A stretch of DNA of 64,000 nucleotides from Acidobacteriota bacterium (GCA_023265315.1 JAHFUA010000004.1:2487-66486); one strand, 5' to 3'; shown: positions 1-63,066, counted from the stretch's first letter. Numbers and translations are program-made. Notes: generated by a model not told the origin, from the letters alone.

Positions 1-1152
1 CTAGACAACAACGCCACCACGCCGGTGCTGCCGGAAGTGCTGGAGGCCATGCGTCCCTACTTCGCCGAGAGCTTCGGCAACGCATCCTCGATCCACCATT
101 TCGGACAGCAGGCGCGGGCGGCGGTGGAGCGCGCGCGGCAGTCGGTGGCGGAGCTGGTCAACGCGCGGCCGGCGGAGATCGTCTTCACCAGCGGCGGCAC
201 CGAGGGCGACAACCTGGCCATCTTCGGAATGGTGCACCCCGGCGACCATGTGATCACCTCCACCATCGAGCACCACGCGGTGCTGAACTCCGCAAAGCGA
301 TTGGCCGAGCGCGGCTGCGACGTTACCTCCGTGCCGGTGGATGCGCACGGGGTGGTCGATCCGGAAGACGTGCGCCGGGCGCTGCGGCCCACTACCCGGC
401 TTATCACCATCATGATGGCCAACAATGAGACCGGCGTGCTGCAGCCGGTGGAGGAGATTGGGCGCATCGCCGCCGAGGCCGACGTCTACTTCCACAGCGA
501 CGCGGTGCAGGCCGCGGGCAAGGTGACAATCGACGTCAAGAAGATCGGCTGCGACTTGCTCTCCATCTCCGGACACAAAATGCACGCGCCGCAGGGCACG
601 GGCGCACTCTACGTGCGCCGCGGCACGCTGCTCGAGCCGCTCTTTGTCGGCGGCAGCCACGAGCGCTCGCGGCGCGCCGGCACGGAAAATCTGCCGGGAA
701 TCGTTGGACTGGGAAAGGCTGCCGAGATCGCGCGTGAATCGCTGGCGCATGGCAATGACGCCAGGTTCGCCGCGCTGCGTGATCGTTTGGAAGCGACGAT
801 CTTGGGAAACATCGATGCTGTTGGAATCAACGGCGCGGGCGCGCCGCGCGCGCCGACTACGACCAATCTGCATTTCGATTTCATCGAGGGCGAGGCGCTG
901 GTGATCGCACTCGACCTGAAGGGACTGGCGGTCTCGACCGGCGCGGCCTGCTCATCGGGCGCGCTCGAGCCTTCCCATGTGCTCACCGCCATGGGCTTGC
1001 CTCAGGAGCGGGCGCGCGCCAGCCTGCGCTTCAGCCTGGGGAAGCAGAATACCGCCGACGACGTGGACTACGCGCTCTCCATCCTGCCGGAGACGGTGGC
1101 GAGGTTGCGCGAGCTGTCGCCCGTGTATCAGAAAAACGCCGTTGGCTCTTAG
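1..1152 (+). CDS. cysteine desulfurase, NifS/IscS (class V aminotransferase) family; 5' end cut by window edge
   Basis: ORF 25..1152 stays open in frame back to nt 1 (LDNNATTPV...). Motifs FTSGGTEGDNLAI, SGHKMHAP (PLP Lys) and the GAACSSG active-site Cys loop. Sits next to mnmA. Confidence 0.9.
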   Translation, partial: LDNNATTPVLPEVLEAMRPYFAESFGNASSIHHFGQQARAAVERARQSVAELVNARPAEIVFTSGGTEGDNLAIFGMVHPGDHVITSTIEHHAVLNSAKRLAERGCDVTSVPVDAHGVVDPEDVRRALRPTTRLITIMMANNETGVLQPVEEIGRIAAEADVYFHSDAVQAAGKVTIDVKKIGCDLLSISGHKMHAPQGTGALYVRRGTLLEPLFVGGSHERSRRAGTENLPGIVGLGKAAEIARESLAHGNDARFAALRDRLEATILGNIDAVGINGAGAPRAPTTTNLHFDFIEGEALVIALDLKGLAVSTGAACSSGALEPSHVLTAMGLPQERARASLRFSLGKQNTADDVDYALSILPETVARLRELSPVYQKNAVGS

Positions 1153-1185
1153 CTCTTGGCTTTTGACTCTTAGCTTTTGGCTTGT
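1144..1185. repeat. heptamer tandem array, 6 units (GGCTCTT AGCTCTT GGCTTTT GACTCTT AGCTTTT GGCTTGT)
   Basis: Period-7 repeat read directly. It spans the TAG stop of the desulfurase (1150-1152) and is the reverse complement of array 1277-1318. Confidence 0.85.
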
Positions 1186-1236
1186 TGTCGGGCTACCAGC
1201 ATTCCTCCTGACGCGACGATATAATTCAATTAGCGT

Positions 1237-1264
1237 GTAGAGACGCAGCATGCTGCGTCTCTAC
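1237..1264. repeat. perfect 28-nt palindrome GTAGAGACGCAGCATGCTGCGTCTCTAC (palindrome family P, copy 1)
   Basis: Self-complementary over all 28 nt. Related copies at 13346, 40643, 47601 and 45363. Confidence 0.9.
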
Positions 1265-1276
1265 TTTCAACGAGCT

Positions 1277-1318
1277 AAAAGCCAAGAGCCAAGAGCCAAG
1301 AGCTATTAGCCAATGGCC
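1277..1318. repeat. heptamer tandem array, 6 units (AAAAGCC AAGAGCC AAGAGCC AAGAGCT ATTAGCC AATGGCC)
   Basis: Period-7 repeat, inverted copy of 1144-1185. The last unit contains the mnmA ATG (1313). Confidence 0.85.
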
Positions 1319-2419
1319 GTTTCTCCCATTGCCGTCGCCATGTCGGGCGGTGTGGATTCGTCCACCGTCGCGGCAATGTTGTGTGCCCAGGGACACCAGG
1401 TGGTCGGCCTGACCATGCAGCTCTGGAACCAGCGCCGGCTGGCTGGGCGTCCGGGCATGCCCGAGGTAGCGCACGGGCGCTGCTGCTCGCTCGACGACGT
1501 TTACGACGCGCGCCGCGTGGCCGAGCGCCTCGGTATCCCCTACTACGTCGTCAACTACGAGCAGCGCTTCGAGCAGGAGGTGGTGCGGCCGTTCGTCTCC
1601 GACTATCTCTCCGGACGCACGCCCATCCCTTGCAGCCTGTGCAACAACGCGATCAAGTTTGACCAGTTCCTGGTCACGGCGCGCCAGATCGGGGCCGAGC
1701 GCCTGGCCACCGGGCATTATGCGCGCGTCGAGTTTGATCAGGCGCGCGGACGCTGGCTGCTCAAGCGTCCCGCCGACCTCCGCAAGGACCAGACATATTT
1801 TCTCTTCGGGCTCACCCAGGAGCAGCTCAGCCGCACCCTGTTCCCCCTGGGCGAGCTGCACAAGTCCGAAGTGCGCGAGCTGGCGCGGCAGCACGGCCTG
1901 GAGTTGGCCGAAAAGCCCGACTCGCAGGAGATCTGCTTCGTCCCCTCCGGCGACTACAAGGCCTTCCTCGACGCCTACACCGCGGAGCAGGGCGAGCGAG
2001 TGCCGGACACCGCCGGCGAGCTGGTGACCGCCGAGGGTGAGGTCATCGGCACGCACGCCGGCATCCACAACTTCACCGTCGGACAGCGCAAGGGATTGGG
2101 TGTGGCCACCGGGTCGCCGCTTTATGTGCTCGAGATCCGTGGCGATTCGCGCCAGGTGGTGGTGGGCAGCCAGGACGAACTCTACTCGCGCACCTTGCGC
2201 GCTCGCGACGTCAACTGGATTGCCGTGGACGAACTCCAGCCCATGCGCGTCGCCATCAAAATCCGCAACCGCCACGAGCCCGCGCCGGCCACCATCGAGA
2301 TGGAACGCGACGGCGAGGTGGTCGCCACCTTCGATGAGCCACAGCGCGCCATCACGCCCGGGCAGGCAGCAGTGTTCTACGACGGTGAGGTCGTGGTGGG
2401 CGGAGGATGGATCGTGTAG
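1313..2419 (+). CDS. mnmA: tRNA 2-thiouridine(34) synthase MnmA
   Basis: 368 aa with PP-loop [11 protein letters not shown], conserved Cys (PCSLCNN, EICF) and the typical MnmA length and C-terminal barrel region. Confidence 0.92.
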
Positions 2420-7587: not shown

Positions 7588-7620
7588 TGAGTACCCAGTA
7601 CCGAGTGAGTGCCGAGTACT
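7588..7620. repeat. degenerate heptamer array (TGAGTAC CCAGTAC CGAGTGA ...GAGTAC)
   Basis: Period-7 AGTAC units abutting the stop of the DUF948-like gene (7619-7621). Related to the GGTAC units at 11171 and 49056. Confidence 0.55.
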
Positions 7621-8134
7621 AAATAAACAATTCCTCATCCTGGGTGACGCGCGGGTTGGCGCGCCGGCGGCGGCGGCGGTTCTGCCCGAAGAAGGCCGAG
7701 ATGCCCACGCTCAGCCCCTGCATGATGCCGGAGATCTGCCGCACCGGCGAGACCACGGTGTGCTCGACCAGCTCGCTGGTCTCCTCGACCCGGTCGAGGG
7801 TGCGGGTGACGATGTCGTCGGCGCGAATCACCTGCAGGCGGGTGCGGTCCACGATGTCGTTCACCGTGGCGTCCAGCCGGTCCATCTGCGTCTTCAGTGT
7901 GCCGGTGGTGGCCACCAGGTTGGCCATGACGATACCGATCTTGCCGCGGGAGTCGTTGAGGATGCTCTCCGCCGAGCTGAGGATGGGCAGAATGCGGCCG
8001 TGGACTTCGCGGGCCAGCACTTCCACCTTGGCGCTGGTCTTGTGCAGGCTGATCGTTAAACTCAGCAGGATGAACATCTGCAGGATGACCGCCCCCGCGG
8101 TGGCGTAAATGAAGATCTTCAACACCGGATCCAT
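7619..8134 (-). CDS. DUF948-like membrane-anchored stress protein
   Basis: ATG 8134 has GGAG upstream. One N-terminal TM, then a long helical region and a basic tail (RRRRRR). Family assignment is from memory. Confidence 0.6.
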   Translation of the reverse strand: MDPVLKIFIYATAGAVILQMFILLSLTISLHKTSAKVEVLAREVHGRILPILSSAESILNDSRGKIGIVMANLVATTGTLKTQMDRLDATVNDIVDRTRLQVIRADDIVTRTLDRVEETSELVEHTVVSPVRQISGIMQGLSVGISAFFGQNRRRRRRANPRVTQDEELFI

Positions 8135-8218
8135 GGTTGAGACTCCGCCCACTCCAGTCGCGCCGCCGCACAGCGGCGAGCCCCAGGCGGCAGCGGACGC
8201 GCCGGTAGTGGGGTCGAG

Positions 8219-8521: not shown

Positions 8522-8589
8522 AGAAACCTCCTCACATCATTCCGTTCGGATGATGACCCAAGCCCGCGATACTACCACAAACGACCCCT

Positions 8590-8658
8590 GGAAGCAGGAC
8601 GCAGGAGGCAGGCGGGATGAAGTTTGCTTTTCCTGCTTCCTGCCTCCTGCTCCCTTCT
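8590..8658. repeat. inverted pair of heptamer arrays (GGAAGCA GGACGCA GGAGGCA GGCGGGA / TCCTGCT TCCTGCC TCCTGCT CCCTTCT)
   Basis: Two period-7 arrays in opposite orientation separated by 13 nt. The right array runs into the SDR stop (8657-8659). Confidence 0.8.
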
Positions 8659-9382
8659 AGGGTTTCTGCGTGGGCCGCAGCAGAATCTCGCTGACAAAGG
8701 ACTGTGGCGCCTGGGTAACGATCATGGCCACGGCGTGGGCCACATCGTCGGGCAGCAGCATCTTTTTGGAATCCTTGCTGGCGGTGTGTCCCCACTCGCT
8801 CAGGGTCGAGCCCGGGCAGATGACCGACACGCGGATATTCTGGCCGCGCAGCTCCTCGGCCACGGAATAGCTCAAGCCGTTCAAGCCCCACTTGGAGGCC
8901 GCGTAGCAAGCGCCGTTGGGCAGCGCATTCTTACCGGCCAGGGACGAGATGTTGACGATGTGTCCGCCGCCCGAGCGCAGCATCAGCGGCACCAGCGAGC
9001 GGATGGTGTAGTACACCCCGCGCAGGTTCGTGCTCATGACTTCGTCCCAAACCTCGGGAGGAAACTGGTGCAGGGGGACGCGCACGCCGGCCACGCCGGC
9101 GTTGTTCACCAGCACGTCGAGGCGGCCGAAACTCGACTCCACATGCTGGGCCAGGGCCTCGACGCTTGGCAAGCGGCTGACGTCGCACTCGGCGGCATCG
9201 CACCGGCCTCCGGCTTGGCGGATGGCGCGGGCCGTGGCCTCCAGTGGTCCGGGGGTGCGTCCGCAGAGCACCACCGTGGCCCCCAGTGCGGCCAGCCGCT
9301 GGGAGATGGCCGCCCCAATGCCGCGACCGCCTCCGGTTACCACCGCAACCTGTCCTTCCAGTCCCTGAGCTGCAGTTGCCAT
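8657..9382 (-). CDS. SDR family oxidoreductase
   Basis: TGGGRGIG dinucleotide motif and YAASK catalytic motif. ATG 9382 is preceded by GGAGGTGG; the longer ORF-track start (9526) lacks support. Confidence 0.85.
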   Translation of the reverse strand: MATAAQGLEGQVAVVTGGGRGIGAAISQRLAALGATVVLCGRTPGPLEATARAIRQAGGRCDAAECDVSRLPSVEALAQHVESSFGRLDVLVNNAGVAGVRVPLHQFPPEVWDEVMSTNLRGVYYTIRSLVPLMLRSGGGHIVNISSLAGKNALPNGACYAASKWGLNGLSYSVAEELRGQNIRVSVICPGSTLSEWGHTASKDSKKMLLPDDVAHAVAMIVTQAPQSFVSEILLRPTQKP

Positions 9383-9553
9383 TTTGGAACCACCTCCGGT
9401 GGCCGCCTTGGGGCGGGTTTGGCGCCGGTTCATGGCTTCGCGACCCCGCTGGGAAGGCAGTTTTTCGCGCATTCGCTGCGCGGGGAAACATCCAGCCGCG
9501 CCGTTCCCGGCATCCAATTCCAGCAAGGGAAGGTTACCACTGCGGAACGCAAC

Positions 9554-9761: not shown

Positions 9762-11075
9762 ATGAAGAAGTCGCTCGTCACGCTGGTGTTGGCGTTGGCC
9801 GCTCTGGCGGCGGCACAACCACCCACCGCTCCATCCACGACGCCCGGGCAGGCGGCGCAGCCAGGGCAGGCCGCCCCACCGCAGCCACAGAAGAAGGAGA
9901 TCAAGGACCCGGCCGAGTACAACTCGTACATCGCCGCGCTGCGCGAGGCCAATCCCCAGCTCCAGGCCCAGGCCTTCGAGAACTTCCTGCAGCAGTATCC
10001 CAACAGCGTGGTCAAGGAAGACGCGCTCGAACAATTGATGGCCGCCTACGAGAAGCTGGGCAACGCCGCCAGGACTACGGAGACCGCCGGCCGCGTCCTG
10101 CAGGTCGATCCCAACAATGTGCGCGCTCTGGCGCTTTTGGCCTACACCAAGCGCGCCGGCGCCGAGGCCGGCCAGGCGCCGCAGCAGAATGCCGCCGAAG
10201 CCATGCAGTACGGCCAGCGCGGGTTGCAAGCCGTCGCTGCCACGGCCAAGCCCGAAGGCATGTCGGACGCCGACTTCGAGAAGTTCAAGACCCAGGTGGC
10301 CATCATCTTCAACGGCTCAGCCGGTTTCGGCGCTCTACAGAACAAGGATTACGCCAACGCGCAGAAATATCTGCAGGCGGCGGTGAACTTGCGCGCCAAG
10401 GAGAACGCCAACGATCCCACCGCGCTGCGCGACATCTATCCGCTGGCGCTGGCTTATTTGGAAGCCACGCCCATTAATCCCACGGGCCTGTGGTGGATCG
10501 CGCGCGCGGCCGCCTTGAGCAACAACAACCCGCAGATCGTCAAGTACGGCCAGTTCAAATACACCAGGTTTCACGGCTCGCCTGAGGGCTGGGAGCAGTT
10601 ACTGGCCCAGGCCAAGAGCAGCGCCGCGCCGCCGGCGAATTTCGCCGTCGCCCCCGCGCCCAGCCCGGCGGAGCAGGCCAAGATGCTGGCCGACTCCAAG
10701 GATGCCAAGAGCATGGACTTTGGCGAGTGGGAGCTGATCCTGTCGCAGGGATCGCCCGACGTTCAGCAAAAGGTGTGGTCGCAGATCAAGGGACTGCAAG
10801 TGCCGTTCGCCGCCAAGGTCATCAGCGCCACCCGCACCAAGCTGGAACTCGCGGCCACCGCCGACGCTATCGAAAAGAATGTTGCCGACGTGACCGTGAC
10901 CATGATCGCGCCGCTGCCCCTGGCCAGCGTGCCCAAGGCGGGCCAGGAGATCCAGGTCCAAGCCAAGCCCGACAGCTACACCGCGAATCCCTTCATGCTC
11001 CAGATGATCGACGGGCAGTTGATCGCCAAGCCCTCCGCCAAGCCGCCGGCCAAGAAACCGCCCGCGCGACGGTAG
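9762..11075 (+). CDS. secreted TPR-like repeat protein (hypothetical)
   Basis: Signal-peptide-like MKKSLVTLVLALAALAAAQ, Pro/Gln-rich linker, TPR-like helices, basic tail KPPAKKPPARR. RBS AAGGAG. Confidence 0.6.
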   Translation: MKKSLVTLVLALAALAAAQPPTAPSTTPGQAAQPGQAAPPQPQKKEIKDPAEYNSYIAALREANPQLQAQAFENFLQQYPNSVVKEDALEQLMAAYEKLGNAARTTETAGRVLQVDPNNVRALALLAYTKRAGAEAGQAPQQNAAEAMQYGQRGLQAVAATAKPEGMSDADFEKFKTQVAIIFNGSAGFGALQNKDYANAQKYLQAAVNLRAKENANDPTALRDIYPLALAYLEATPINPTGLWWIARAAALSNNNPQIVKYGQFKYTRFHGSPEGWEQLLAQAKSSAAPPANFAVAPAPSPAEQAKMLADSKDAKSMDFGEWELILSQGSPDVQQKVWSQIKGLQVPFAAKVISATRTKLELAATADAIEKNVADVTVTMIAPLPLASVPKAGQEIQVQAKPDSYTANPFMLQMIDGQLIAKPSAKPPAKKPPARR

Positions 11076-11084: not shown

Positions 11085-11161
11085 CACGGATTCACGCGGA
11101 TGTTCACGGATTTTGATCAGCAGGACCATTCAGATCCGTTGTGATCCGTGCTAATCCGTGA
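11085..11161. repeat. CACGGAT-type inverted repeat hairpin (arms 11085-11112 and 11133-11161)
   Basis: The left arm cacggattcacgcggatgttcacggatt pairs with the right arm gatccgttgtgatccgtgctaatccgtga. The same CGCGGAT motif occurs at 49029-49055. Confidence 0.75.
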
Positions 11162-11170
11162 CTGGTTCCA

Positions 11171-11205
11171 CTCGGTACACGGTACCTGGTACTCGCTACT
11201 CGCTA
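11171..11205. repeat. heptamer array CTCGGTA CACGGTA CCTGGTA CTCGCTA CTCGCTA
   Basis: Period 7. The last unit contains the stop of the Fis-like gene (11203-11205). The same unit family occurs at 49056-49083. Confidence 0.85.
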
Positions 11206-11481
11206 CCGCGCCGCCCTCTTCTCCAGAACCACGGGACGAGCGCTGCGCGGGGGACGGCGGGCGTTGTCGCGCACCGCGCGCATATCCAGCTTGAGCTCGC
11301 TGATGGTGCGGCTGAGGGTGTTGCGGTGCATACCCAACTCGCGCGCCGCCCTGCACTGGTTGCCGTGATTCTCCTGCAGCACCGCCAGGATGAAGCGCTT
11401 CTTGAACTCGCGCACCGCCTCCGAATACAGGATGCCGCTCTTGTACATCTGGCTCACCAGGGCCTCGAGCTGATCCTTCAC
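11203..11481 (-). CDS. Fis-family helix-turn-helix DNA-binding protein
   Basis: 92 aa with a Fis-type HTH: GNQCRAARELGMHRNTLSRTI. Confidence 0.75.
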   Translation of the reverse strand: MKDQLEALVSQMYKSGILYSEAVREFKKRFILAVLQENHGNQCRAARELGMHRNTLSRTISELKLDMRAVRDNARRPPRSARPVVLEKRAAR

Positions 11482-13345: not shown

Positions 13346-13368
13346 GGAGACGCAGCCTGCTGCTTAGG
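13346..13368. repeat. degenerate palindrome-family-P copy (GGAGACGCAGCCTGCTGCTTAGG)
   Basis: The left arm matches 1239-1249; the right arm is decayed. It overlaps the MOSC gene stop (13364-13366). Confidence 0.5.
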
Positions 13369-15408: not shown

Positions 15409-15564
15409 TGTCATCCTGAGTGAAGCCGCGTCGAGCTTCGCGAAGACGCGGCCAGCGAAGGATCTATGCATTTGGTTCGCAAGCCGCACGCGCTTCGAAA
15501 AACATAGATCCCTCGCTTGCGCTCGCCTCGCGGGGCTCGGCTCGCGCCGCACTCGGGGATGACA
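15409..15564. repeat. inverted-repeat element, family A, full copy (TGTCATCCTGAGTG...CACTCGGGGATGACA), 156 bp
   Basis: Long complementary arms around a central loop. It fills the lysA-GH57 spacer and explains spurious ORFs 15382..15606 and 15411..15602. Confidence 0.85.
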
Positions 15565-15638: not shown

Positions 15639-17831
15639 TCAGTACGTGGCCGCGCGCAGCTCTTCATCGGACAGGAGCTGGAGCTCGATCCAGCCTTCGA
15701 CCGGCAGCGCGTCGATGGGCAGGCGGTCGCGCCACAGGCTGAAGCGCAGACGCACGCGGTCGCCCTGCGCGGCGTCGAGGGCGTAGAGCGGCAGCCGGAA
15801 TTCGAAGACCTTCAGCAGCCGCACTTGAGCCAGATCTTGCAGCGCAACGCCTTCCTCGCCGGAGGTCAGCTTGGAGACGGTGATGGCGCGGTCGGCGATG
15901 GTGACATCGAGGCGCAGCTCGCGTCCTTTTTCCTTCGCGGCGCGCGGCTGCCGCTCCAGATTCACCACCAGCTCGAAGTTGCCCTCCGGGACTTCGCCGA
16001 TGAAGTCCAGCCGCCCGTAGACGAACTTCTCGTCCACGCCGGCATGGACCGAGTCGAGCAGGAACTGCTTGCCATGCATGGCCGAGGAGCGCCGGTCGGC
16101 GGTGTACATGGCGGCGCCGATCCAGTCGAAGTAGCGCACCGCGGCACCCTCGATGCGCGGATGGATGTAGGCCGTCTGCGGCGTGAAGTAGGGCCGCGCC
16201 TCGGCGCCGGCGATGGGCTGCGCCAGGTAATCGGGCGGCGAGGCGCCCAGCGCCTGGTAGATATTGGAGAGGTGCTTGCGGTAGAGCTCGTCAAAATCGC
16301 GGTCGTTGGCGGAGTGATGCTCGGGGCCATACCACCAGTTCCAGTCGCTGCCCTCGGCGATCAGCACCTCTTCAAAGGCCAGCCGCCGCGCCGGTTCGCT
16401 CGCCCCCGCAGCCGTGCGCGCGTAGAAGTCGCGGGCAGAACTTAGATAATCCCAGGCGCGGTTGTCCTCGGGGGCGCCGATCCACACGTTGAAGTTGGCG
16501 TTGATCCAGGAGCCGGGGACGAGTGAATCGAGGCGCGGAAACTGGCTCTGCCGCGTGATGGCCTCGCTCACCGTTACCGCCTCCATCTCGCGGTCGCGCT
16601 GGATGGCGTCGTAAACGCGGCGCAGGAATTCCCGTCCGGATTGCGGGTAGTACTCCCAGGCGTTTTCGCCGTCGAGGATGATTGGCACCATGACATCACG
16701 ACGTTTGCTGCCAATCGCTTGCGCACAATCCTTGATGCGATGGATTAAGTGATTGGCGGCCGCGGCGGCGGGCATGCCCGCATAGACGAAGCCGATCAGG
16801 TCGGAGAGTGTGTGGTCGCGAAACAGCATGTGCATCACGGCCTCGGCCTTCTGATAGCGGTAGAGGGTGTAGAGCTTGTCGGCGCCGTCGGCCAAAAGGC
16901 GCCCCTCGCCGTCGCGATGGAAAAAGTAGCCGATGGAGCGCCCCAGCACGCCTTCGTCGGTGGCCATCCATTGGACGCCGAGCTTGTGGGCGATGGCGAT
17001 CACTTCCTCGGAGACGCTGCCCTCCGACGGCCACACCCCCTGCGGGCGCACGCCGAACACCCGCTGGTGCAGGTCGAGTCCGCGGCGAAGCTGTTCTTCC
17101 GCGTCCTCGGGATGGCGGAAGCGTTGCTGCGGCAGCGCCAGCCCGGGCGAGGAGACGCGGCCCTGGTCGGTGTCACACACCAGCGGCAGAATGGGATGGT
17201 AGAAGGGCGAAGTCGAAATCTCGATTCCTCCGCGCTTCGCGGCGGCCGCATACGCGGGCAGCACCTGGGCAAGGAATTCTTTCTGCTTGGCAAGCGCCAG
17301 CACCTGATCGTCGCGTGAATACCCGCGCTCCTTGCGTATCAGCGCCGCCACGTCCTTGTCTTCCAGAAAAAATTCGTCGAACCAGGCGATTTGCGAGAGC
17401 ACCTGCAGGTCGACGAGGTCCTGCGGGCGGAAGTAGCTCAGGGCGCGATCCAGGCTCTCGCCCGTGCTGCGGAACTGCTGGAACAGCTCGCGGTAGCGCG
17501 GATAGCGCCCGATCATGAGCGTGTGGTTGGCCTGGAAGAGATACTGCAAGGCGAAGCGGCGCTCGGCGGGCGAGAGCTCGGCGGCCGGCTTCGACGCCAC
17601 CTCCAGAAATGGGTCGTGTGCCGAACCCGCCACGTAGTCTTCGATCTGCGCGATCAGCGACGGCACCAGGTTGAAGGTTTGGTGGACGTTGGGAAATTCT
17701 TCCAGCAGCTTCACCATGCCGTAGTAGTCCTTCAAGGCGTGCAGGCGGGTCCAGGGCAGGCGGTACTCACCCGTCACCAGGTCCTTGTAGTAGGGCTGGT
17801 GCATGTGCCAGAGAAAGACGACGCGAATCAT
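15639..17831 (-). CDS. glycoside hydrolase family 57 protein (alpha-amylase/4-alpha-glucanotransferase-like)
   Basis: 730 aa with the N-terminal WHMHQPYY signature and the conserved GH57 catalytic region. Confidence 0.85.
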   Translation of the reverse strand: MIRVVFLWHMHQPYYKDLVTGEYRLPWTRLHALKDYYGMVKLLEEFPNVHQTFNLVPSLIAQIEDYVAGSAHDPFLEVASKPAAELSPAERRFALQYLFQANHTLMIGRYPRYRELFQQFRSTGESLDRALSYFRPQDLVDLQVLSQIAWFDEFFLEDKDVAALIRKERGYSRDDQVLALAKQKEFLAQVLPAYAAAAKRGGIEISTSPFYHPILPLVCDTDQGRVSSPGLALPQQRFRHPEDAEEQLRRGLDLHQRVFGVRPQGVWPSEGSVSEEVIAIAHKLGVQWMATDEGVLGRSIGYFFHRDGEGRLLADGADKLYTLYRYQKAEAVMHMLFRDHTLSDLIGFVYAGMPAAAAANHLIHRIKDCAQAIGSKRRDVMVPIILDGENAWEYYPQSGREFLRRVYDAIQRDREMEAVTVSEAITRQSQFPRLDSLVPGSWINANFNVWIGAPEDNRAWDYLSSARDFYARTAAGASEPARRLAFEEVLIAEGSDWNWWYGPEHHSANDRDFDELYRKHLSNIYQALGASPPDYLAQPIAGAEARPYFTPQTAYIHPRIEGAAVRYFDWIGAAMYTADRRSSAMHGKQFLLDSVHAGVDEKFVYGRLDFIGEVPEGNFELVVNLERQPRAAKEKGRELRLDVTIADRAITVSKLTSGEEGVALQDLAQVRLLKVFEFRLPLYALDAAQGDRVRLRFSLWRDRLPIDALPVEGWIELQLLSDEELRAATY

Positions 17832-17837: not shown

Positions 17838-17872
17838 CCAGTTGTCAGTAGTCAGTTGCCAGGTGTCAGTTG
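17838..17872. repeat. heptamer array CCAGTTG TCAGTAG TCAGTTG CCAGGTG TCAGTTG
   Basis: Period 7, starting 7 nt upstream of the GH57 start codon. No inverted partner seen. Confidence 0.85.
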
Positions 17873-18001
17873 TAGCGGCGTGCGCGGGAAGATGCAAGTG
17901 GGCAGTGGATTGCCGTCGAGACAGAGAGCGCGAAATGGAATAGGAAGAGGTAGCGCCGGCGTCGCGTCTCGCCCGCGCCTTCTGCTAAATTAGTCACTCC
18001 C

Positions 18002-19662: not shown

Positions 19663-19670
19663 ACTGGCTT

Positions 19671-40627: not shown

Positions 40628-40642
40628 GAGATCCGCTTGCAT

Positions 40643-44302: not shown

Positions 44303-44360
44303 AGGGGCGCCTGCGAGGTGTCAGGGACTGACGCCACGAATAAAACGGAACACGATCATC

Positions 44361-45113: not shown

Positions 45114-45123
45114 GGGGAAAACC

Positions 45124-45151
45124 GTCGGCGGTCGTCGGTCGATGGTCGTTG
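45124..45151. repeat. heptamer array GTCGGCG GTCGTCG GTCGATG GTCGTTG
   Basis: Period 7, starting 11 nt after the sdhB stop. Confidence 0.8.
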
Positions 45152-45230: not shown

Positions 45231-45354
45231 TGTCATCCTTCGCGAGCCGAAGGCGAGCGGAGGATCTGGCGAGAAGGCCTTCACCGCCAGACCCGGTTGC
45301 GCCGACGACCTCGCCAGATTCTCCCGCCTCCCTTTGGTCGGCGGAAGAATGACA
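45231..45354. repeat. inverted-repeat element, family A subfamily 1, 124 bp (twin of 2590-2713)
   Basis: Same termini (TGTCATCCTTCGCGAG...CGCCAGATTCTCCCGC...GGAAGAATGACA) and identical length. Explains spurious ORFs 45163..45513 and 45174..45491. Confidence 0.85.
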
Positions 45355-47600: not shown

Positions 47601-47644
47601 ACAGACGCAGCATGCTGTGTCTCTCATGCTGTGTCTCTCATGTG
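47601..47644. repeat. palindrome family P copy with 14-bp tandem duplication of its right arm (CATGCTGTGTCTCT x2 + CATGTG)
   Basis: ACAGACGCAGCATGCTGTGTCTCT starts 21 nt after the dipeptidase stop. The duplication at 47611-47624 and 47625-47638 was read directly. Confidence 0.85.
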
Positions 47645-47647: not shown

Positions 47648-47757
47648 CGGAGGGGCGCAGCTTTAGCTGCGCCGAGAAGAAAAATAAGAATTGTCATCCT
47701 GAGCGCCGCCCGAACGAGCGTAGCGAGCGAGGGCCCGCGAAGGACCTGCTTTTGAAA
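47648..47757. repeat. family-A composite, single-arm copy: GGCGCAGC-TTTA-GCTGCGCC hairpin + spacer + one arm (TGTCATCCTGAGCG...GGACCTGCTTTTGAAAA)
   Basis: The arm 47692-47757 matches the reverse complement of 52225-52290 at about 61 of 66 positions by manual alignment. Confidence 0.8.
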
Positions 47758-47782
47758 ACCAGAATGTAAGGAGTCATTTCGA

Positions 47783-48413: not shown

Positions 48414-48470
48414 TGTCCCTCGACTCGCGCTCGGCTCGCGGGCTCGCCTCGCGCTTCGCTCGGGATGACA
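48414..48470. repeat. short family-A hairpin, subfamily 2 (TGTCCCTCGACTCGCG...CGCTCGGGATGACA)
   Basis: 57-bp hairpin between the two cyclophilin genes; a near-twin of 19671-19719. Confidence 0.8.
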
Positions 48471-49015: not shown

Positions 49016-49028
49016 CCCAGAAACCTAC

Positions 49029-49083
49029 CGCGGATTAACGCGGATGGCCGCGGATCTCGGTACTCGGTACTTGGTACACGGTA
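49029..49083. repeat. composite repeat: CGCGGAT x3 (10-nt spacing) followed by heptamers CTCGGTA CTCGGTA CTTGGTA CACGGTA
   Basis: Same two motif families, in the same order, as 11085-11205. It ends at the nadK stop (49084-49086) and lies between convergent genes. Confidence 0.85.
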
Positions 49084-49947
49084 CTATCTTTCCCCCCACT
49101 TCAATTTCATCCGCAGCACATCGAAGAAAGTTCGATCGGCGTGGCGCAGCAGGTGCACCTCGCGCGCGGATTTCTTGCAGGTGATGTGGTCGCCTTCGAC
49201 CACGGGGATGCCCACCTGGCCGTCCACGGTGAGGAAAGCTTCTTCCGGAGTGGCGTTCACCAGGATCGTCACGATGCGGCTGTCCTTCACCACCACCGGC
49301 CGATGAGTGAGCATGTGTGGAGAAATGGGAGTGATAATGAACGCGTTCACCTCGGGGGAAACCACGGGTCCGCCGGCGGCCAGGGAGTAGGCGGTGGAAC
49401 CGGTGGGCGTGGCCACGATGAGCCCGTCGGCGCGGTAGCTGGCGACGAAGCGGTCGTCCACCCGGATCTCGAATTCCAGGATGCGCGCCATGGCGCTCTT
49501 GTGGATGACGGCGTCGTTGAGCGCATCGAAGTGCGCCACGCGCTCGCCTTGCCGCATGAGATGGCAGTGCAGCATGCTGCGCACTTCCACCGCGCAGCGG
49601 TTCTCGACCACCGCCTCCAGCGTGGGATAGAGCTCGGAGAGCGAGACCTCAGTCAGAAAGCCGAGCGTGCCCAGGTTGACGCCGAGCACCGGAATCTTGG
49701 CCTCGGCCAGAGCGCGCGCCGCGGCCAGCATGGTGCCGTCGCCGCCCAGTACCAGCACGAACTCAGGCTTCTTGGCGGCCAGCTCGTCGCGCGGCAAGGC
49801 GGGATGCGAAGGTAGATACGAGCCGGTCTCCTGATCGATCAAGACCTCGTAGCCGTGGCGCCTTAACCAGTCCGCCACCTCGGGAGCCACGCGCTCCAGC
49901 GCCGGCTGCGACGGCTTCGACATGATGGCGACAGTCTTCACGGGCAT
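49084..49947 (-). CDS. nadK: NAD kinase
   Basis: Motifs GGDGTML, NLGTLGFL and ATPTGSTAYSLAAGG. Confidence 0.92.
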   Translation of the reverse strand: MPVKTVAIMSKPSQPALERVAPEVADWLRRHGYEVLIDQETGSYLPSHPALPRDELAAKKPEFVLVLGGDGTMLAAARALAEAKIPVLGVNLGTLGFLTEVSLSELYPTLEAVVENRCAVEVRSMLHCHLMRQGERVAHFDALNDAVIHKSAMARILEFEIRVDDRFVASYRADGLIVATPTGSTAYSLAAGGPVVSPEVNAFIITPISPHMLTHRPVVVKDSRIVTILVNATPEEAFLTVDGQVGIPVVEGDHITCKKSAREVHLLRHADRTFFDVLRMKLKWGER

Positions 49948-49950
49948 TTC

Positions 49951-50006
49951 TGATTGGTGATTTGTGATTGGTGATTTGCCGTCGCTAAATCACAAATCAC
50001 AAATCC
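49951..50006. repeat. inverted pair of heptamer arrays (TGATTGG TGATTTG TGATTGG TGATTTG / AAATCAC AAATCAC AAATCC)
   Basis: It fills essentially the whole 59-nt tlyA-nadK spacer. The arms are complementary around the 8-nt loop CCGTCGCT. Confidence 0.88.
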
Positions 50007-50753
50007 TTAAAAGACGCCATATAGCAGGAACTCCCGGTTGCCCTCCGCTCCCAGGATTGGGGAATCGATCGCGTCGGTCTGGGCAGCGCCGAGTTCGAGA
50101 ACGGCGCGGCGAACTTTCTCGACCGCTTCCATCTGCGCCCGCGCATCGCGCACGATCCCGCCCTTGCCCACTGCTTCCCTTCCCGCCTCGAACTGCGGCT
50201 TCACCAGCACTACCAGCTCGAGCCGGCGGCGGGCTCCGCCGCGTGCCGCGCGGATGACGGCCGGCAGCACGAGTGTAGCAGAGATGAACGACACGTCCAT
50301 GGCGACCAGGTCCACCGGCTCGCCCACGTCTTGCGGCTTGAGGTAACGGGCGTTGGTGCGCTCGCGCAGGCGCACGCGCGGGTCCTGGCGCAAACGATGC
50401 GCCATCTGGCCGTAGCCGGTGTCGATGGCGATGACCCGTGCCGCGCCGTGCTGCAACAGGCAGTCGGTGAAGCCGCCGGTCGAAGCTCCGACGTCCATGC
50501 ACGCTCGCCCGCGCACCTCGATGTGCCAATGCGCGAGCGCCTTCTCCAGCTTCACTCCGCCGCGGCTGACGTATTTGAGATCCTCGCCCAGGATGCGGAC
50601 GTCTGCGCCCGCATCGACGGCGGCGCCCGCCTTCTCCACCTTCTGCTCGTTCACCAGCACCTTGCCGGCCAGCACCAGCGCCTGAGCGCGCTCGCGCGAG
50701 GCGGCCAGACCGCGCTCGACCAGCAGCTTGTCGAGACGAACCTTTGGGGACAT
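50007..50753 (-). CDS. tlyA: TlyA-family rRNA (cytidine-2'-O)-methyltransferase
   Basis: N-terminal S4-like RLDKLLVERGL and the methyltransferase motif DVGASTGGFTD. Confidence 0.88.
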   Translation of the reverse strand: MSPKVRLDKLLVERGLAASRERAQALVLAGKVLVNEQKVEKAGAAVDAGADVRILGEDLKYVSRGGVKLEKALAHWHIEVRGRACMDVGASTGGFTDCLLQHGAARVIAIDTGYGQMAHRLRQDPRVRLRERTNARYLKPQDVGEPVDLVAMDVSFISATLVLPAVIRAARGGARRRLELVVLVKPQFEAGREAVGKGGIVRDARAQMEAVEKVRRAVLELGAAQTDAIDSPILGAEGNREFLLYGVF

Positions 50754-51806: not shown

Positions 51807-52052
51807 ATGAGCGCGGCGCACCAGGTGATCGTCTACTCGCGCAAAGGGTGTCACTTGTGCGAGATCGTGAAAGAATCGCTTTCGAAACTGGAGCGGCGGG
51901 GCGGTTTCACCTGGCGCGAAGTGGACGTGGACTCCGACGATGCTTTGCGGCGGCAGTTCACCGATGAGGTGCCGGTGGTCTTCATCAACGGCAAAAAGGC
52001 CTTCAAGTACCGCATGGCGGAAAGGGATTTTCTGAGGAAGCTGGAAGCGTAA
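51807..52052 (+). CDS. glutaredoxin-like thioredoxin-fold protein
   Basis: 81 aa with VIVYSRKGCHLCE (CxxC) and VPVVFINGK. Confidence 0.8.
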   Translation: MSAAHQVIVYSRKGCHLCEIVKESLSKLERRGGFTWREVDVDSDDALRRQFTDEVPVVFINGKKAFKYRMAERDFLRKLEA

Positions 52053-52093: not shown

Positions 52094-52330
52094 CTTCCGG
52101 AGGGGCGCGGCTTTTAGCCGCGCCGGAAGATGAGATAAGAATTGTCACCCTGAGCGCTGCCCGACCTGAGCTTGCGAAGGGAGGGCGAGCGAAGGACCTG
52201 CTTCTCGGCGTTGTCGCTGCAACCTTTCAAAAGCAGGTCCTTCGCTGGCGCTCGCTCGCTGCGCTCGTTCGGGCACCGCTCAGGATGACAACACGGTAGG
52301 CTATTTAGCGGCACGGCTGAAGGCCGTGCC
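52094..52330. repeat. complete family-A composite: hairpin (52094-52128) + inverted-repeat element (52143-52290, TGTCACCCTGAGCG...CGCTCAGGATGACA) + hairpin (52310-52330)
   Basis: 148-bp element with arms complementary over about 65 nt, flanked by the GC hairpins CTTCCGGAGGGGCGCGGC-TTTTA-GCCGCGCCGGAAG and GGCACGGC-TGAAG-GCCGTGCC. Confidence 0.88.
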
Positions 52331-54175: not shown

Positions 54176-55474
54176 TCAGTGCGCGATGGCGAGGCCGAAG
54201 GGGTTGGCGCCTCCCGTGTTCGCCGCCGAGCCGCTCTGGGTGGGTGTGCCGGCTATGGGTGTGCAGGGCGGGGTCGTGCAGGCGGTAGTGCTGGTGACGG
54301 TGAACACCACGATGGTGCCGTGGTCGTAGTCGGTGACGTAGAGGAAGTGGCCGGGGGCGATCGCGGAAGTTGTGGAAGTAGCGGGAATAGAGGTGGGATC
54401 CGGCAGGATCACACCCACGGTACCGCCCACGCTGGTGTTGCTCTGAAAGACGAGAGGGACCAGCGGGTTGCCATTGGCATCAGTTGAGCATCCCGTGGGC
54501 ACCGGAGTCTGCATGCAGTTCAGGAAGAAGGAAATCGTGCGGATACCGGCATTGCCGGTATAGACAGAGTTGCCGCCGTCGACGCTCACCGCGATCGAGA
54601 CCGGAATGCTGCCGGCCACCGGCAGCGGCACGGCGGCCACGTCGGCGAGTGTGCCATTGGTGATGCTTGCGACGTATACCTTGTCGTCTAGGCTGGCGAC
54701 AAAGAGGAACTGGTTGTCGGGCGAAACTGCCAGCGCGACAGGCTGGGCGCCGCCGCCGCCGAGGAGAAACGGCGAACCGACCTGCGTCAGCACCCCGCTG
54801 CCGGTGTCAATCGAGAAAACCGAAACCGAGCCCTGGTTGTCGGGATTGGTACGACAGTGGCAGTTGGCCACGAACACGAACTTCCCCTGGGGATCGACGA
54901 CGACATTGAACGGGTCCGGCCCCACCGGCACGCCGGGCGGCGGACCCTGGGGCCCGATGGCGGTCAGTGTTCCTTTGCTGCTGTCGATGGAAAACGCCGC
55001 CAGATGATTGGTCGTCAGGTCGGCAGCATAGAGGAAGTTGCCGCTGGGCGTAACGGCGATGGGATCGTAATCGCCGCCACTGGCGAACATCTGCGGCACG
55101 TCCAGCGTGTGGTCGGTCTTGATGGGCATCAGCATGATGCCTCCGGTGACGGACCCGCTCAGTGTGCGACCGAGCACGCGCGTGATTACCCCGCCATTTT
55201 GCGTCGCCGGGATCCCCGCATACAGGAACTTGGTGGAAACCGCCGCTACCGTATAGGGCGCGTTCCCGGTGGTGACGAACGGTGAACCGCTGAAGTGGCC
55301 GAGCGTTCCCGTGGTGACGGTGAAGGCGGACATCGATCCCGGCCGGAAGGAGTTAGCGGCGTAGAGAAACCCGTTGGGCGCGGTCGTTGTGGTGGATGAC
55401 GAGCCGCACCCGGAAAGCAAAAACAGCAGCAGGCAACTGAGGCACAGAAGGACAGCCTTGTTCAATTGAGTCAT
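54176..55474 (-). CDS. lipoprotein, 7-bladed beta-propeller lactonase-like family
   Basis: Lipobox LLSGCG and repeated FLYAAN/FLYVT propeller-like motifs. The start codon lies inside an octamer array. Confidence 0.6.
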   Translation of the reverse strand: MTQLNKAVLLCLSCLLLFLLSGCGSSSTTTTAPNGFLYAANSFRPGSMSAFTVTTGTLGHFSGSPFVTTGNAPYTVAAVSTKFLYAGIPATQNGGVITRVLGRTLSGSVTGGIMLMPIKTDHTLDVPQMFASGGDYDPIAVTPSGNFLYAADLTTNHLAAFSIDSSKGTLTAIGPQGPPPGVPVGPDPFNVVVDPQGKFVFVANCHCRTNPDNQGSVSVFSIDTGSGVLTQVGSPFLLGGGGAQPVALAVSPDNQFLFVASLDDKVYVASITNGTLADVAAVPLPVAGSIPVSIAVSVDGGNSVYTGNAGIRTISFFLNCMQTPVPTGCSTDANGNPLVPLVFQSNTSVGGTVGVILPDPTSIPATSTTSAIAPGHFLYVTDYDHGTIVVFTVTSTTACTTPPCTPIAGTPTQSGSAANTGGANPFGLAIAH

Positions 55475-55528
55475 TGAGCCATTGAGTCATTGAGCCATTA
55501 AGCCGCAGCGCTTTTCAAATGACTCAAT
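55465..55528. repeat. octamer array ATTGAGTC ATTGAGCC ATTGAGTC ATTGAGCC ATTAAGCC plus an inverted unit ATGACTCAAT at 55519-55528
   Basis: Period 8. The first unit carries the lactonase ATG (55474). The same family occurs at 62328 and 63018. Confidence 0.88.
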
Positions 55529-55594
55529 CGCCAGGTTTTCAACAGTCCTTCGCTGGTTGAGGAGCTTAGGGTACCACAGACTCCGCCTCCCCAC

Positions 55595-58745: not shown

Positions 58746-58749
58746 AGAG

Positions 58750-62237: not shown

Positions 62238-62326
62238 CTAGCCTAAGCCCAAAGGTAATCATCCCCAACTAACGGAAGTACAGGGGTGGACTGCGCTGGT
62301 AGGCGGTGACCCGGCGGATGCCGGGC

Positions 62327-63028
62327 TCAATGACCCAATGACTCAATCTCCTTATCCACGGGCCCGGCCTGGCGCATCCAGCGCCACATGAGCGCGGCTG
62401 CCGCCACCATCGCGATGATAAGGACCGCCACTAGAACCAACCAGCCCAAGTAACGTTCGGGATGGCGGACCAGGAGGACGAAGTGGCGTCCGTAGCGGGC
62501 CGCCGCCCACGCCAGCAGACCGTAGCGGAGGGCGCGCCCCACCGCCACGGCGCTGAGATATCGCCGGGCGGGATAGTTCAAAATGCCAGCCGCGGCGAGG
62601 ACCACCGTCGCCGGGAACGGTGGAGGAAGAAGCGTGGCGCCGATCAGAGTGCCTCCTCCCCACTGGCGGACGAAGTCGAGCAGGCGGTGCGCCCTGCTCT
62701 CGCCGAATTTGCGGGTGAGGTAGGCCTCACCGGCCTTGCGGGCAAGCGAATAGGTGATGAAAGAACCGATCACCGCCCCGGCAGTGGCGACCAGCGCGTA
62801 GGAGTACCAGGGCTGGCGGTGCCGCGCGGCCAGGACGACGATTACCAGATCGAGACCCCCGAAGGTGGGCACGGGCGAGCTATCTAGGATGGCCAGCGCC
62901 AGCAGGCCAAGAACCCCCAACGAACGCAGGGCGGCTTGCCAACTGGTGTGACGGGGAGTGCGCCGGGCAGCCCGCCACAGCAAGCTAGCCAGCGGTCGCC
63001 AGAACGGAGGAATCTGCCATTGAGTCAT
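62327..63028 (-). CDS. DedA/YqaA-like (VTT domain) membrane protein
   Basis: 233 aa, multi-TM, motif GSFITYSLARKAGEAYL...LLPPPFP. Both ends are embedded in octamer arrays. Confidence 0.65.
   Translation of the reverse strand: MTQWQIPPFWRPLASLLWRAARRTPRHTSWQAALRSLGVLGLLALAILDSSPVPTFGGLDLVIVVLAARHRQPWYSYALVATAGAVIGSFITYSLARKAGEAYLTRKFGESRAHRLLDFVRQWGGGTLIGATLLPPPFPATVVLAAAGILNYPARRYLSAVAVGRALRYGLLAWAAARYGRHFVLLVRHPERYLGWLVLVAVLIIAMVAAAALMWRWMRQAGPVDKEIESLGH
62328..62351. repeat. octamer array CAATGACC CAATGACT CAATCTCC
   Basis: Period 8, the reverse-complement family of ATTGAGTC. It overlaps the stop codon (62327-62329). Confidence 0.8.
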
Positions 63029-63066
63029 CGAGTCATTGGGACAATTGTCTCATCGAGCCATTCATT
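63018..63066. repeat. octamer array CATTGAGT CATCGAGT CATTGGGA CAATTGTCT CATCGAGC CATTCATT
   Basis: Period 8 (one 9-nt unit). It contains the ATG at 63028 and three upstream ATGs. Confidence 0.8.

Follow-up and report, generated by a model that had tools for sequence, protein, structure and literature searches.

Short tandem arrays with a period of 7 nucleotides (nt), occasionally of 8 or 10 nt, stand at gene boundaries throughout a 64,000-nt stretch of DNA from a soil Acidobacteriota bacterium (GCA_023265315.1, JAHFUA010000004.1:2487-66486), referred to here as the window, and at gene junctions of its relatives in the order Terriglobales. With moderate confidence, we regard them as microsatellites that are born at Terriglobales gene junctions and turn over there. 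The arrays share a period and not a sequence, are anchored on gene boundaries, differ in length by 7-nt steps, and carry insertions in their loops. Their units are specific to the locus, more than half of the arrays are paired with a complementary array, and the two arms of a pair change jointly.

Period-7 Arrays in the Window and in Relatives

A previous reading of the window from its sequence alone (the sequence-only reading) had listed 15 segments in which a 7- or 8-nt unit is repeated head to tail. The window, which has a G+C content of 64%, was scanned with a fixed detector requiring at least 80% identity at the lag over 2.5 units, for periods of 4 to 16 nt, and compared to 20 dinucleotide-preserving shuffles. 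There were 8 arrays of period 7 compared to 0.25 in the shuffles, and 1 array of period 8 compared to 0.05. Periods 5 and 9 through 16 showed no enrichment in the window over the shuffles, and enrichment of period 6 was confined to gene interiors. Seven of the 8 period-7 arrays were intergenic, although only 11% of the bases in the window are (89% lie in genes as called by a crude caller based on G+C at third codon positions). These data agree with the claims that tandem arrays of this kind exist and that their periodicity is non-coding, 7 not being a multiple of 3. The further claim that the arrays lie outside long open reading frames holds for those 7 arrays, but 62328-62351 is within the 3' end of the coding sequence 62327-63028 (minus strand), and a few bases enter coding sequence at 1144-1152, 1313-1318, 55465-55474, and 63018-63028.

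Three of the spacers called intergenic were seen to hold apparent coding sequence: a ferredoxin-like N-terminus at 40376-40509, extending the gene at 40510-41337 upstream; a small glutaredoxin/thioredoxin-like open reading frame with a CxxC motif at 51817-52052; and a small open reading frame with a signal-peptide-like start at 28493-28756. Slightly too much of the window is thus counted as intergenic, and the estimates of array enrichment err on the conservative side.

Tandem Repeats Finder (TRF) reported period 7 (or 14/21) at 10 of the listed sites and period 8/16 at 3 (Table 1). Identity at lag 7 or 8 was 0.71 to 0.92 in 12 of the 15 listed segments and weak in the other three, 7588-7620 (0.54), 39513-39547 (0.46), and 63018-63066 (0.56). 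The strong arrays have 3 to 6 invariant phases per unit; the earlier description of 4 to 5 fixed and 1 to 3 wobble positions suits them. Higher-order periods gave the better TRF match at 49946-49978 (94% for period 14 compared to 80% for period 7) and at 55465-55504 (100% for period 16 compared to 87% for period 8), indicating that two-unit blocks were duplicated.

The survey was extended to 119 loci fetched from relatives (labeled with L-numbers), for a pool with the window of 1.71 Mb. The MnmA protein of the window is 92 to 73% identical to Terriglobales (Acidobacteriota) proteins. The pool contained 143 arrays of period 7, with 104 in the 17% of bases called intergenic, and 17 arrays of period 8, with 13 intergenic. 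Arrays of periods 5, 6, and 9 through 11 were not concentrated in the intergenic DNA of the pool. Among the longer loci, array density ranged across lineages from 0 to about 4 per 10 kb. Comparison with dinucleotide shuffles thus yielded the excess of period 7 in the window that the sequence-only reading had anticipated, and in the relatives the period-7 arrays were mostly intergenic.

The arrays at 8590 and 11171 were absent from relatives at about 70% nucleotide identity, which have plain spacers or canonical terminators in their place; the terminator of canonical type stands at the 11171 position. Synteny was broken at 7588 and 39513 in the closest relatives.

We give virtually no credence to chance or to faulty assembly as the source of the arrays. 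The weakness of the three segments named above is the only point in favor of either. The 8 arrays compared to 0.25 in shuffles argue against chance, and dozens of independent assemblies, from short as well as long reads, have the same arrays at orthologous sites, which excludes the assembly errors that the sequence-only reading had wished to see checked.

Anchoring on Stop and Start Codons

All stop and start coordinates given for the arrays in the sequence-only reading were correct. When distances to gene ends were tabulated, 12 of the 15 listed segments were within 3 nt of a called gene end, compared to 2.4 expected for uniform placement inside their own spacers, and none of 200,000 simulations reached 12. 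The boundary placement that had been claimed is therefore well supported in the window. For the relatives, the spacers used as fetching bait were left out, which gave 42 independent intergenic arrays; 62% of these were within 5 nt of a called gene end compared to 20% expected, most of them at stops. Arrays numbered 0.09 per kb of spacer in divergent, 0.22 in co-directional, and 0.33 in convergent spacers (n = 4, 21, and 10), a bias that fits a link to gene 3' ends, at low numbers.

The flanking genes are mutually unrelated housekeeping genes. Among them are mnmA, sdhB, tlyA, and the NAD kinase gene ppnK, as well as genes for a cysteine desulfurase (here called iscS), pyruvate dehydrogenase E1, a short-chain dehydrogenase, a Ser/Thr kinase, a GH57 glycosidase, and a DedA-family protein.

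Stop triplets occurred in the units at about twice the expected frequency (43% compared to 22% per strand). The arrays could be viewed as a three-frame stop barrier, in which heptamers with a stop triplet would block each frame inside three units and so insulate gene ends from read-through or out-of-frame ribosomes. In the relatives, 15 of 26 boundary-adjacent arrays close all sense frames, compared to about 22% for a random heptamer, and an array TGA ends the tlyA protein in two of them, L091 and L094. The TAACTGA repeats described by MacGregor have the same three-frame property (PMC4679880). However, none of the 12 heptamer arrays in the window close three frames, units such as TACCGAG, GTCGNNG, and GGANGCA have no stop triplet, and the enrichment of stops is explicable by seeding from the stop codon itself. 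We consider such a barrier quite improbable and rejected it as a general function on the strength of the window arrays, retaining it as a side tendency that probably reflects stop-codon seeding.

Units Specific to the Locus

We obtained 41 distinct consensus units from 54 arrays, in line with the earlier observation that most loci use a unit of their own. Few unit families recur (TTAGCNN, GTACNNN, CAACTGA, GTCGTCA, CCTGAAG, and GATTTGT). The GTAC-type family is found in opposite orientations relative to the gene at 7588 and 11171, which argues against a single-stranded sequence motif.

The arrays could also be platforms for a protein whose binding follows a 7-nt or 7-bp register; candidates would be cold-shock-domain, S1, or CsrA-type proteins on RNA, as MacGregor suggested for TAACTGA (PMC4679880), and ribbon-helix-helix repressors on DNA. 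Omega of pSM19035, a ribbon-helix-helix protein, binds arrays of 7-bp heptads (WATCACW), either direct or inverted. The AATCACA unit at 49987-50006 fits this heptad, presumably by coincidence, as other arrays use other units. A strict period of 7 with varying sequence speaks for such a protein, and binding has been proposed for TAACTGA repeats (PMC4679880). We nevertheless hold this to be improbable: the 41 units have no common recognition motif, a unit family may face either way relative to the gene, and no candidate protein was linked to the arrays, the likeness to omega being found at one locus only.

Paired Arrays at the iscS-mnmA Junction

Thirty of the 54 arrays had a partner (at least 17 of 21 nt reverse complementary, within 350 nt), compared to none in the shuffles. 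The three arm pairs noted before in the window (1133-1187/1268-1322, 8593-8621/8630-8658, and 49959-49977/49987-50005) were confirmed as complementary, and the proposal that several arrays form hairpins agrees with their predicted folds.

The arms between iscS and mnmA constitute an inverted repeat of 55 nt with 82% complementarity. The predicted fold of 1135-1325 has an energy of -104.5 kcal/mol (z = -13.2), and in it the mnmA ATG pairs with the last codons of iscS. We compared 60 iscS-mnmA junctions from Terriglobales, with a left array called when at least 3 YDGC motifs stood at 7-nt spacing. The spacer was 4 nt or shorter in 7 junctions. A left array was present in 25 of the 60, a right array in 27, and both in 21; the same pattern occurred in 0.6 to 0.7% of random intergenic segments. 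Among the 46 spacers that were folded, 21 had z < -3, and at least 8 base pairs tied the stop to the start region in 25. The units vary by lineage (TTAGCTC, TTAGCAC, or TTAGCAA, with GTCKTCA paired with TGAMGAC in L004, L005, and L007), and the loops range from almost none (L030, L039, and L045) to 80-500 nt holding other repeats. One tight junction, that of L048, reads TAGCTCA TAGCATG (stop, C, and ATG) and looks like the two-unit seed of a TAGCNNN array.

Change in Place at the Ends of tlyA and ppnK

In the window, the 5' arm of the tlyA-ppnK hairpin (GGAUUUG UGAUUUG UGAUUUA) begins right past the tlyA stop, and the 3' arm (CAAAUCA CCAAUCA x2) ends 3 nt before the ppnK AUG. Arms 49959-49977 and 49987-50005 are 95% complementary, and the fold of 49945-50012 (minus strand) has a predicted energy of -24.4 kcal/mol (z = -6.2). 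The relatives have three types of spacer at this junction: (GATTTGT)n with (ACAAATC)n, (TAATTKG)n with (CMAATTA)n, and an unrelated GC-rich stem followed by a T-run. The arm types switch jointly, GAT with ATC and TAAT with ATTA, with 0 of 12 loci discordant.

Side observations were made at the same junction. In L091 (about 9905-9925) and L094 (about 9911-9931), the ancestral tlyA stop has been lost through a change of TTTGAGG to TTTGTGG; the frame now ends at a TGA within the first heptamer units, so that the array supplies the stop. In L082, L089, L092, L095, L097, L104, and L106, the GC-rich hairpin upstream of ppnK is AAAACCGCGGAGGACGC...GCGTCCTCTGCGGTTTTGG, preceded by an A-run and followed by a T-run, and looks like a bidirectional intrinsic terminator. 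With these lineages counted, nearly all relatives examined have some hairpin between tlyA and ppnK. L085 and L087 have ppnK genes that are 99.8% identical and identical downstream arrays, with upstream hairpins of TAATTGG and TGATTTG, respectively, and different loops. This difference could be taken for hypermutation, but it looks like recombination or an assembly mosaic and was not used.

Past the ppnK stop, metagenomic relatives (88-94% protein identity) have 2 to 7 copies of TACCRAG in loci where the ppnK genes are 86-97% identical in nucleotide sequence. A TTGGTAA hairpin replaces this array in some lineages, and in one lineage (L104) the TACCRAG array has a complementary arm. Arrays of the ATTAGC type have 4, 5, or 6 copies in genomes with 94-95% identical flanks, a difference of one or two units. 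Unit number is thus polymorphic in orthologous spacers, which the sequence-only reading had proposed to look for.

These changes also bear on another suggested source of the arrays, namely transposase-driven insertion of miniature mobile elements (REP/REPIN/MITE type) at the ends of genes. Hairpins in intergenic DNA at gene 3' ends would suit such elements, as would the presence of two unit families at several loci, with (TACCGAG)n and (ATCCGYGNNN)3 together at both 11085-11205 and 49027-49083, in a window that is rich in truly dispersed repeats. Most arrays, however, are unique to their locus. Where orthologous arrays differ, the change has been gradual and local, in unit number and at single positions; a fixed element that is either there or missing was not the pattern. 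The arrays share no ends, and no target-site duplications were noticed. We consider a mobile origin very improbable.

Folding, Terminators, and Strand Symmetry

The third paired locus of the window, at 8590-8658, begins at the stop of the short-chain dehydrogenase gene 8657-9526 (minus strand). Its arms 8593-8621 and 8630-8658 were found complementary by inverted-repeat search, the fold of 8585-8662 (minus strand) has a predicted energy of -45.9 kcal/mol (z = -5.1), and the gene beyond begins 68 nt on with a Shine-Dalgarno sequence of its own. No T-run follows the heptamer stems at 1133-1322, 8590-8658, or 49948-50006, which therefore do not have the form of intrinsic terminators. Only the decamer hairpin at 11085-11160 and a plain hairpin at 7584-7563 have that form.

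Unpaired arrays in the window took two forms. In one, the array sits on a TAG stop and is followed by a terminator-like hairpin with a T-run. At 7588-7620 this is the hairpin at 7584-7563, of canonical form and directly past the heptamers. At 11171-11205, the first unit holds the TAG stop of a Fis-like gene (11203-11481, minus strand), and the hairpin at 11085-11160 (predicted folds of -33 to -50 kcal/mol, z = -3.2 to -3.9) is followed on the minus strand by GCGTTTTT, with a terminator-like site at 11099-11084; it is probably a terminator placed just past the heptamer array. In the second form, at 17838-17872, the array is a leader that ends 6 nt before the ATG of the GH57 gene 15639-17831 (minus strand), with RNA predicted to be unstructured (z = +0.7) and no Shine-Dalgarno sequence. 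A search of Rfam 15 gave no matches at the gathering score, and with E values up to 1 the sole hit to an array was a sub-threshold hairpin match of a miRNA precursor model at 1155-1300.

A helix that is selected as RNA usually has many more G·U than A·C pairs. We scored both transition mismatches alike on the sense strand of 27 hairpins in co-directional spacers and counted 660 Watson-Crick, 31 G·U, and 34 A·C pairs. Selection specific to the RNA strand was rejected for want of positive evidence in this count. The symmetry of G·U and A·C fits maintenance of the arms at the DNA level, in a small sample of 65 mismatches. Template-switch correction of quasipalindromes, described in Escherichia coli, is a candidate process for such matching of arms.

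These results have to be weighed for the main rival explanation, in which selection acts on the hairpins as cis-regulatory RNA elements and stem growth yields the 7-nt periodicity only as a by-product. The elements could be coupling or start-hiding stems, RNase III sites, attenuators or terminators, or barriers to 3' exonucleases; REP elements act as such barriers in malE-malF. A stop-start stem recurs at the same junction in many lineages despite sequence change, the tlyA-ppnK spacer has three hairpin families including the terminator-like stem with its T-run, and unit changes are mirrored between arms. Predicted stem stability greatly exceeds that of shuffles, divergent (promoter) spacers have fewer arrays (0.09 compared to 0.22-0.33 per kb), and the periodic-unit hairpin at 11085-11160 stands where relatives have a canonical terminator. 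In contrast, G·U pairs are not in excess of A·C on the sense strand, the heptamer hairpins have no U-tracts, and about half of the arrays are unpaired. Moreover, relatives at about 70% nucleotide identity lack the arrays of 8590 and 11171, and one unit family is used in both gene orientations (7588 and 11171). Taken together, these data make selected RNA elements possible but, in our judgment, unlikely.

Proposed Origin and Consequences

For the microsatellite origin that we favor, we propose that slippage at replication would duplicate a 7-nt block at or near a stop codon or at a tight stop/start junction. More slippage could then gain or lose single units or blocks of two or three units, which would homogenize the array. 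An inverted copy might be made by fold-back or template switch, and the same quasipalindrome-correcting process may hold the two arms complementary; together, these steps would explain unit changes that occur on both arms at once. Once transcribed, paired arrays between same-strand genes would form stems of 20-55 bp with a base that links the stop to the next start. A large insertion into a junction once coupled over 1-4 nt could be tolerated, since a ribosome terminating there would melt the base of the stem and so expose the hidden AUG of the next gene, and the long duplex may be cut by RNase III. Unpaired arrays would be short spacers in the 3' untranslated region between stop and terminator or, alternatively, unstructured leaders without a Shine-Dalgarno sequence.

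Several points weigh against this proposal. Slippage, template switching, and all consequences at the RNA level are what we infer from sequence, and the caution in the sequence-only reading that any function of the arrays is a matter of inference is still appropriate. Slippage alone leaves the preference for 7, and not for 5 or 8-11, unexplained. The iscS-mnmA hairpin persists at about 75% MnmA identity, long for a neutral microsatellite, which suggests selection or continual re-seeding. The near equality of G·U and A·C among the 65 mismatches weakens the part of the proposal that concerns RNA coupling. A lack of Shine-Dalgarno sequences, which might have been read as a sign of coupling, was uninformative, since a motif of this kind preceded 0 of 5 array-embedded starts and 11 of 46 other crudely called starts, no significant difference from background. 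Finally, beyond the window the survey rests on relatives, the closest of those found being about 87% identical in nucleotide sequence.

A bolder version is that Terriglobales junctions carry an actively maintained, sequence-independent device, in which stems built of 7-nt modules tie stop to start. We find this improbable. If it were true, the stems would be programmable translational couplers or insulators, or RNase III sites that give leaderless mRNAs, and a dedicated machine, either a 7-nt-stepping enzyme or a periodicity-sensing protein, would write or read the 7-nt module. Such a device would also account for the recurrence of boundary heptamers in five or more bacterial phyla.

Individual Arrays and Other Repeats of the Window

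Table 1. Tandem arrays of the window and features associated with them. TRF intervals are given with the reported period.
Feature	Position	Strand	Description	TRF interval (period)
iscS-mnmA hairpin, 5' arm	1133-1187	+	Heptamers GGCTCTT/AGCTCTT/GGCTTTT; holds iscS stop TAG (1150-1152)	1142-1183 (7/14/21)
Perfect 28-nt palindrome	1237-1264	unstranded	GTAGAGACGCAGCATGCTGCGTCTCTAC; in loop of iscS-mnmA hairpin	
iscS-mnmA hairpin, 3' arm	1268-1322	+	Heptamers AAGAGCC; holds mnmA ATG (1313-1315)	1272-1313 (7/14/21)
Degenerate GTAC-type heptamers	7588-7620	-	Begin at TAG stop (7621-7619) of gene 7619-8152 (-)	
Two-array hairpin	8590-8658	-	(CAGGARG)n and (UGCNUCC)n on sense strand	8590-8612, 8630-8655 (7/14/21)
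Decamer hairpin	11085-11160	-	Units of about 10 nt, CACGGATNNN / ATCCGYGNNN; between two convergent genes	
Unpaired heptamer array	11171-11205	-	Sense CGAGTAG CGAGTAC CAGGTAC CGTGTAC	11190-11206 (7/14/21)
Unpaired array	17838-17872	-	Sense CAACTGA CACCTGG CAACTGA CTACTGA CAACTGG	17839-17873 (7/14/21)
Weak heptamer array	39513-39547	-	GCTAAGT GCTGATT GGCAAGT GCTGACG on + strand; below detector threshold	
Heptamer array	45115-45151	+	GTCGGCG GTCGTCG GTCGATG GTCGTTG	45124-45149 (7/14/21)
Partial complementary arm	45302-45325	+	71% to 45115-45138; just before start called at 45334	
Three decamers	49027-49055	-	ATCCGCGNNN (sense); directly past heptamer array 49056-49083	TRF period 10
Heptamer array	49056-49083	-	TACCGTG TACCAAG TACCGAG TACCGAG	49056-49085 (7/14/21)
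tlyA-ppnK hairpin	49948-50006	-	Fills whole 59-nt spacer	49946-49978, 49987-50005 (7/14/21)
Octamer array	55465-55504	-	GGCUCAAU/GACUCAAU (sense); holds ATG of gene 54176-55474 (-)	55465-55504 (8/16)
Three octamers, family of 55465-55504	62328-62351	-	Inside last codons of DedA/VTT gene 62327-63028 (-)	62328-62347 (8/16)
Degenerate octamers	63018-63066	-	Overlap ATG (63028-63026) of DedA/VTT gene 62327-63028 (-)	63018-63036 (8/16)

The weak array at 39513-39547 ends 2 nt from the stop of gene 39550-40293 (minus strand), and the array at 49056-49083 begins immediately past the TAG stop of the NAD kinase gene 49084-49947 (minus strand). Heptamers of the array at 45115-45151 begin 10 nt past the stop of the sdhB-like gene 44280-45113. 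The match of its partial arm (45302-45325) is weak and not above shuffles, and a dispersed GTCATCC... repeat sits in the loop between 45115-45138 and this arm. The octamer array at 55465-55504 also contains out-of-frame AUGs and has one complementary unit at about 55517-55529 (fold z = -3.4). The composite of heptamers and decamers after ppnK was also present in L085 and L087. Arrays of about 10-nt units were further seen to adjoin GTAC-type heptamers at two unrelated loci of the window, 11085-11160 and 49027-49055.

Octamer arrays of one family, inverted relative to each other, bracket the whole DedA/VTT gene; 62326-62351 and 63019-63040 match by eye at 19 of 22 positions, as expected from both ends carrying the same unit family. 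Pairing of the 5' and 3' ends around this gene was rejected, since the RNAduplex energy was not clearly better than that of shuffles.

Other repeats were noted in the window. The palindrome at 1237-1264 is a copy of a dispersed repeat and is separate from the heptamer arrays; its sequence GAGACGCAGCATGCTGCGTCTC occurs at three loci (1237-1264, 13349-13363, and 47604-47642), and half of it is tandemly duplicated at 47611-47642 (a 14-mer x2.3, 100% match). A second dispersed intergenic repeat, GTCATCCTGAGCG...GAAGGATCT or ...GGGATGACA, was found at 2591-2645, 15410-15564, 45232-45275, 47693-47760, and 52144-52289, with related inverse forms at 19670-19718 and 48414-48470. Members of this family are long imperfect palindromes and look like a miniature inverted-repeat element. 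Copies lie in heptamer-hairpin loops (as at 45232) and, in many relatives (L086, L091, and L094 among them), directly past heptamer arrays. The GC-rich hairpin GCGCAGCTTTAGCTGCGC / GCGCGGCTTTTAGCCGCGC has two copies (47655-47672 and 52105-52123), each about 20-40 nt upstream of a GTCAYCCTGAGCG element, which suggests a composite repeat. The long divergent spacer 34626-35088 contains, at 34776-34829, two copies of TTCCTAGG followed by the 14-mer AGGGTGAAATGCAA x2.8.

Comparison with Known Repeats

The sequence-only reading had cited the heptanucleotide STRR repeats of filamentous cyanobacteria. These sequences of heterocystous cyanobacteria, which Mazel and colleagues are said to have described in 1990, reportedly consist of three fixed units (CCCCAGT, TTGGTCA, and CAACAGT) dispersed in high copy number. 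Both are tandem heptanucleotides in non-coding DNA, and the comparison survives as a loose analogy only, because the host is an Acidobacterium and none of the 41 consensus units is an STRR unit or its complement. A cyanobacterial origin was rejected as well: MnmA places the host in Terriglobales, the cyanobacterial HIP1 octamer is rare (5 occurrences in the window), and no STRR unit is present.

REP, BIME, and REPIN elements are intergenic hairpins at gene 3' ends that can stabilize the upstream mRNA, with one dispersed palindrome per genome that is mobilized by RAYT transposases. MIRUs are tandem repeats inserted between genes of an operon; by overlapping the flanking stop and start codons, their ends preserve translational coupling, and their units of 40-100 nt contain small open reading frames. 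Unlike the arrays here, neither REP elements nor MIRUs have a 7-nt substructure or sequence specific to the locus. The arrays are not dispersed palindromes of the REP/REPIN kind, as their units are locus-specific and orthologous arrays evolve in place.

Nearer parallels are found among published heptanucleotide repeats. As summarized in two later papers (PMC4679880, PMC4692102), Mrazek et al. (2007) found heptanucleotide repeats over-represented in many prokaryotic genomes and suggested that 7 nt reflects polymerase contact. Those long repeats resemble the present arrays in having tandem 7-nt units that are over-represented, mostly intergenic, and variable in length by unit steps, and a slippage origin was proposed for them. 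The arrays in the window share these properties, being 7-nt repeats above chance, mostly noncoding, and variable in unit number. That survey was statistical; its summaries do not include locus-specific units, anchoring on stops and starts, or paired arms, and the ten genomes richest in 5-11-nt repeats, as given there, include no Acidobacteria. Geobacter metallireducens has families of four or five tandem heptanucleotides (PMC2700814).

In Xanthomonas, Rehm et al. (2015, PMC4692102) described about 185 (GGGANTN)n arrays, about 90% of them intergenic and on average 28 nt from the neighboring ORF (open reading frame). Inverted pairs that could fold into stem-loops account for 70 to 75 of the arrays. 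Between species, an array keeps its position and its type (single or pair) while its length varies, and most arrays are transcribed (PMC4692102). Heptamer arrays near ORF ends, frequent inverted pairs, and conservation across species are all seen here as well. The difference is that Xanthomonas (GGGANTN)n and Nostoc (GGGGAYT) use one G-rich unit genome-wide that is capable of forming G-quadruplexes. No intergenic array here has a GGG tract in every unit, units are specific to the locus, and stems begin and end on stop and start codons.

TAACTGA arrays are known from Beggiatoaceae, cyanobacteria, and Bacteroidetes (MacGregor 2015, PMC4679880). They abut starts that have no Shine-Dalgarno sequence, overlap upstream stops, provide stops in three frames, and vary by 7-nt indels (PMC4679880). 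Abutment on starts and overlap with stops are shared by the arrays here, and that at 17838-17872 consists of CAACTGA/CTACTGA 6 nt before an ATG. Only this array and one in L051 are within one mismatch of TAACTGA, the other units being unrelated to it, so the arrays as a whole are not direct repeats of that unit. TAACTGA is a single unit, nearly always in direct repeats (one inverted among 170 sets). The Terriglobales arrays, over half of which are paired, use many units.

Heptamer arrays that are anchored on gene boundaries, or inverted, are thus already in the literature (PMC4679880, PMC4692102), and the novelty implied by the sequence-only reading does not extend to them. A full-text literature search found no paper on heptamer intergenic repeats in Acidobacteria. 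Apparently undescribed are units that vary by locus, stems from stop to start, unit changes mirrored between arms, and presence in Acidobacteriota.

Heptamers at gene boundaries have been known for decades in cyanobacteria, Xanthomonas, Beggiatoaceae, Bacteroidetes, and Geobacter, with no accepted explanation. Each earlier case had one dominant unit, which invited the idea of a sequence-specific binding protein. The paired arrays are natural experiments, with different units, copy numbers, and loop insertions at one junction in different lineages. They could be used to test whether coupled operon junctions tolerate long insertions by virtue of their folding away, and to test template switching at the DNA level against selection for complementarity at the RNA level. 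In practice, gene starts, operons, and short-read assemblies will be harder to get right where such arrays occur in the abundant soil Acidobacteria. What sets the arrays described here apart from known systems is that stop-to-start stems are retained at given junctions throughout an order, with turnover of their sequence. A period that is conserved without its sequence points away from a motif and toward some process or structure by which 7 nt are measured.

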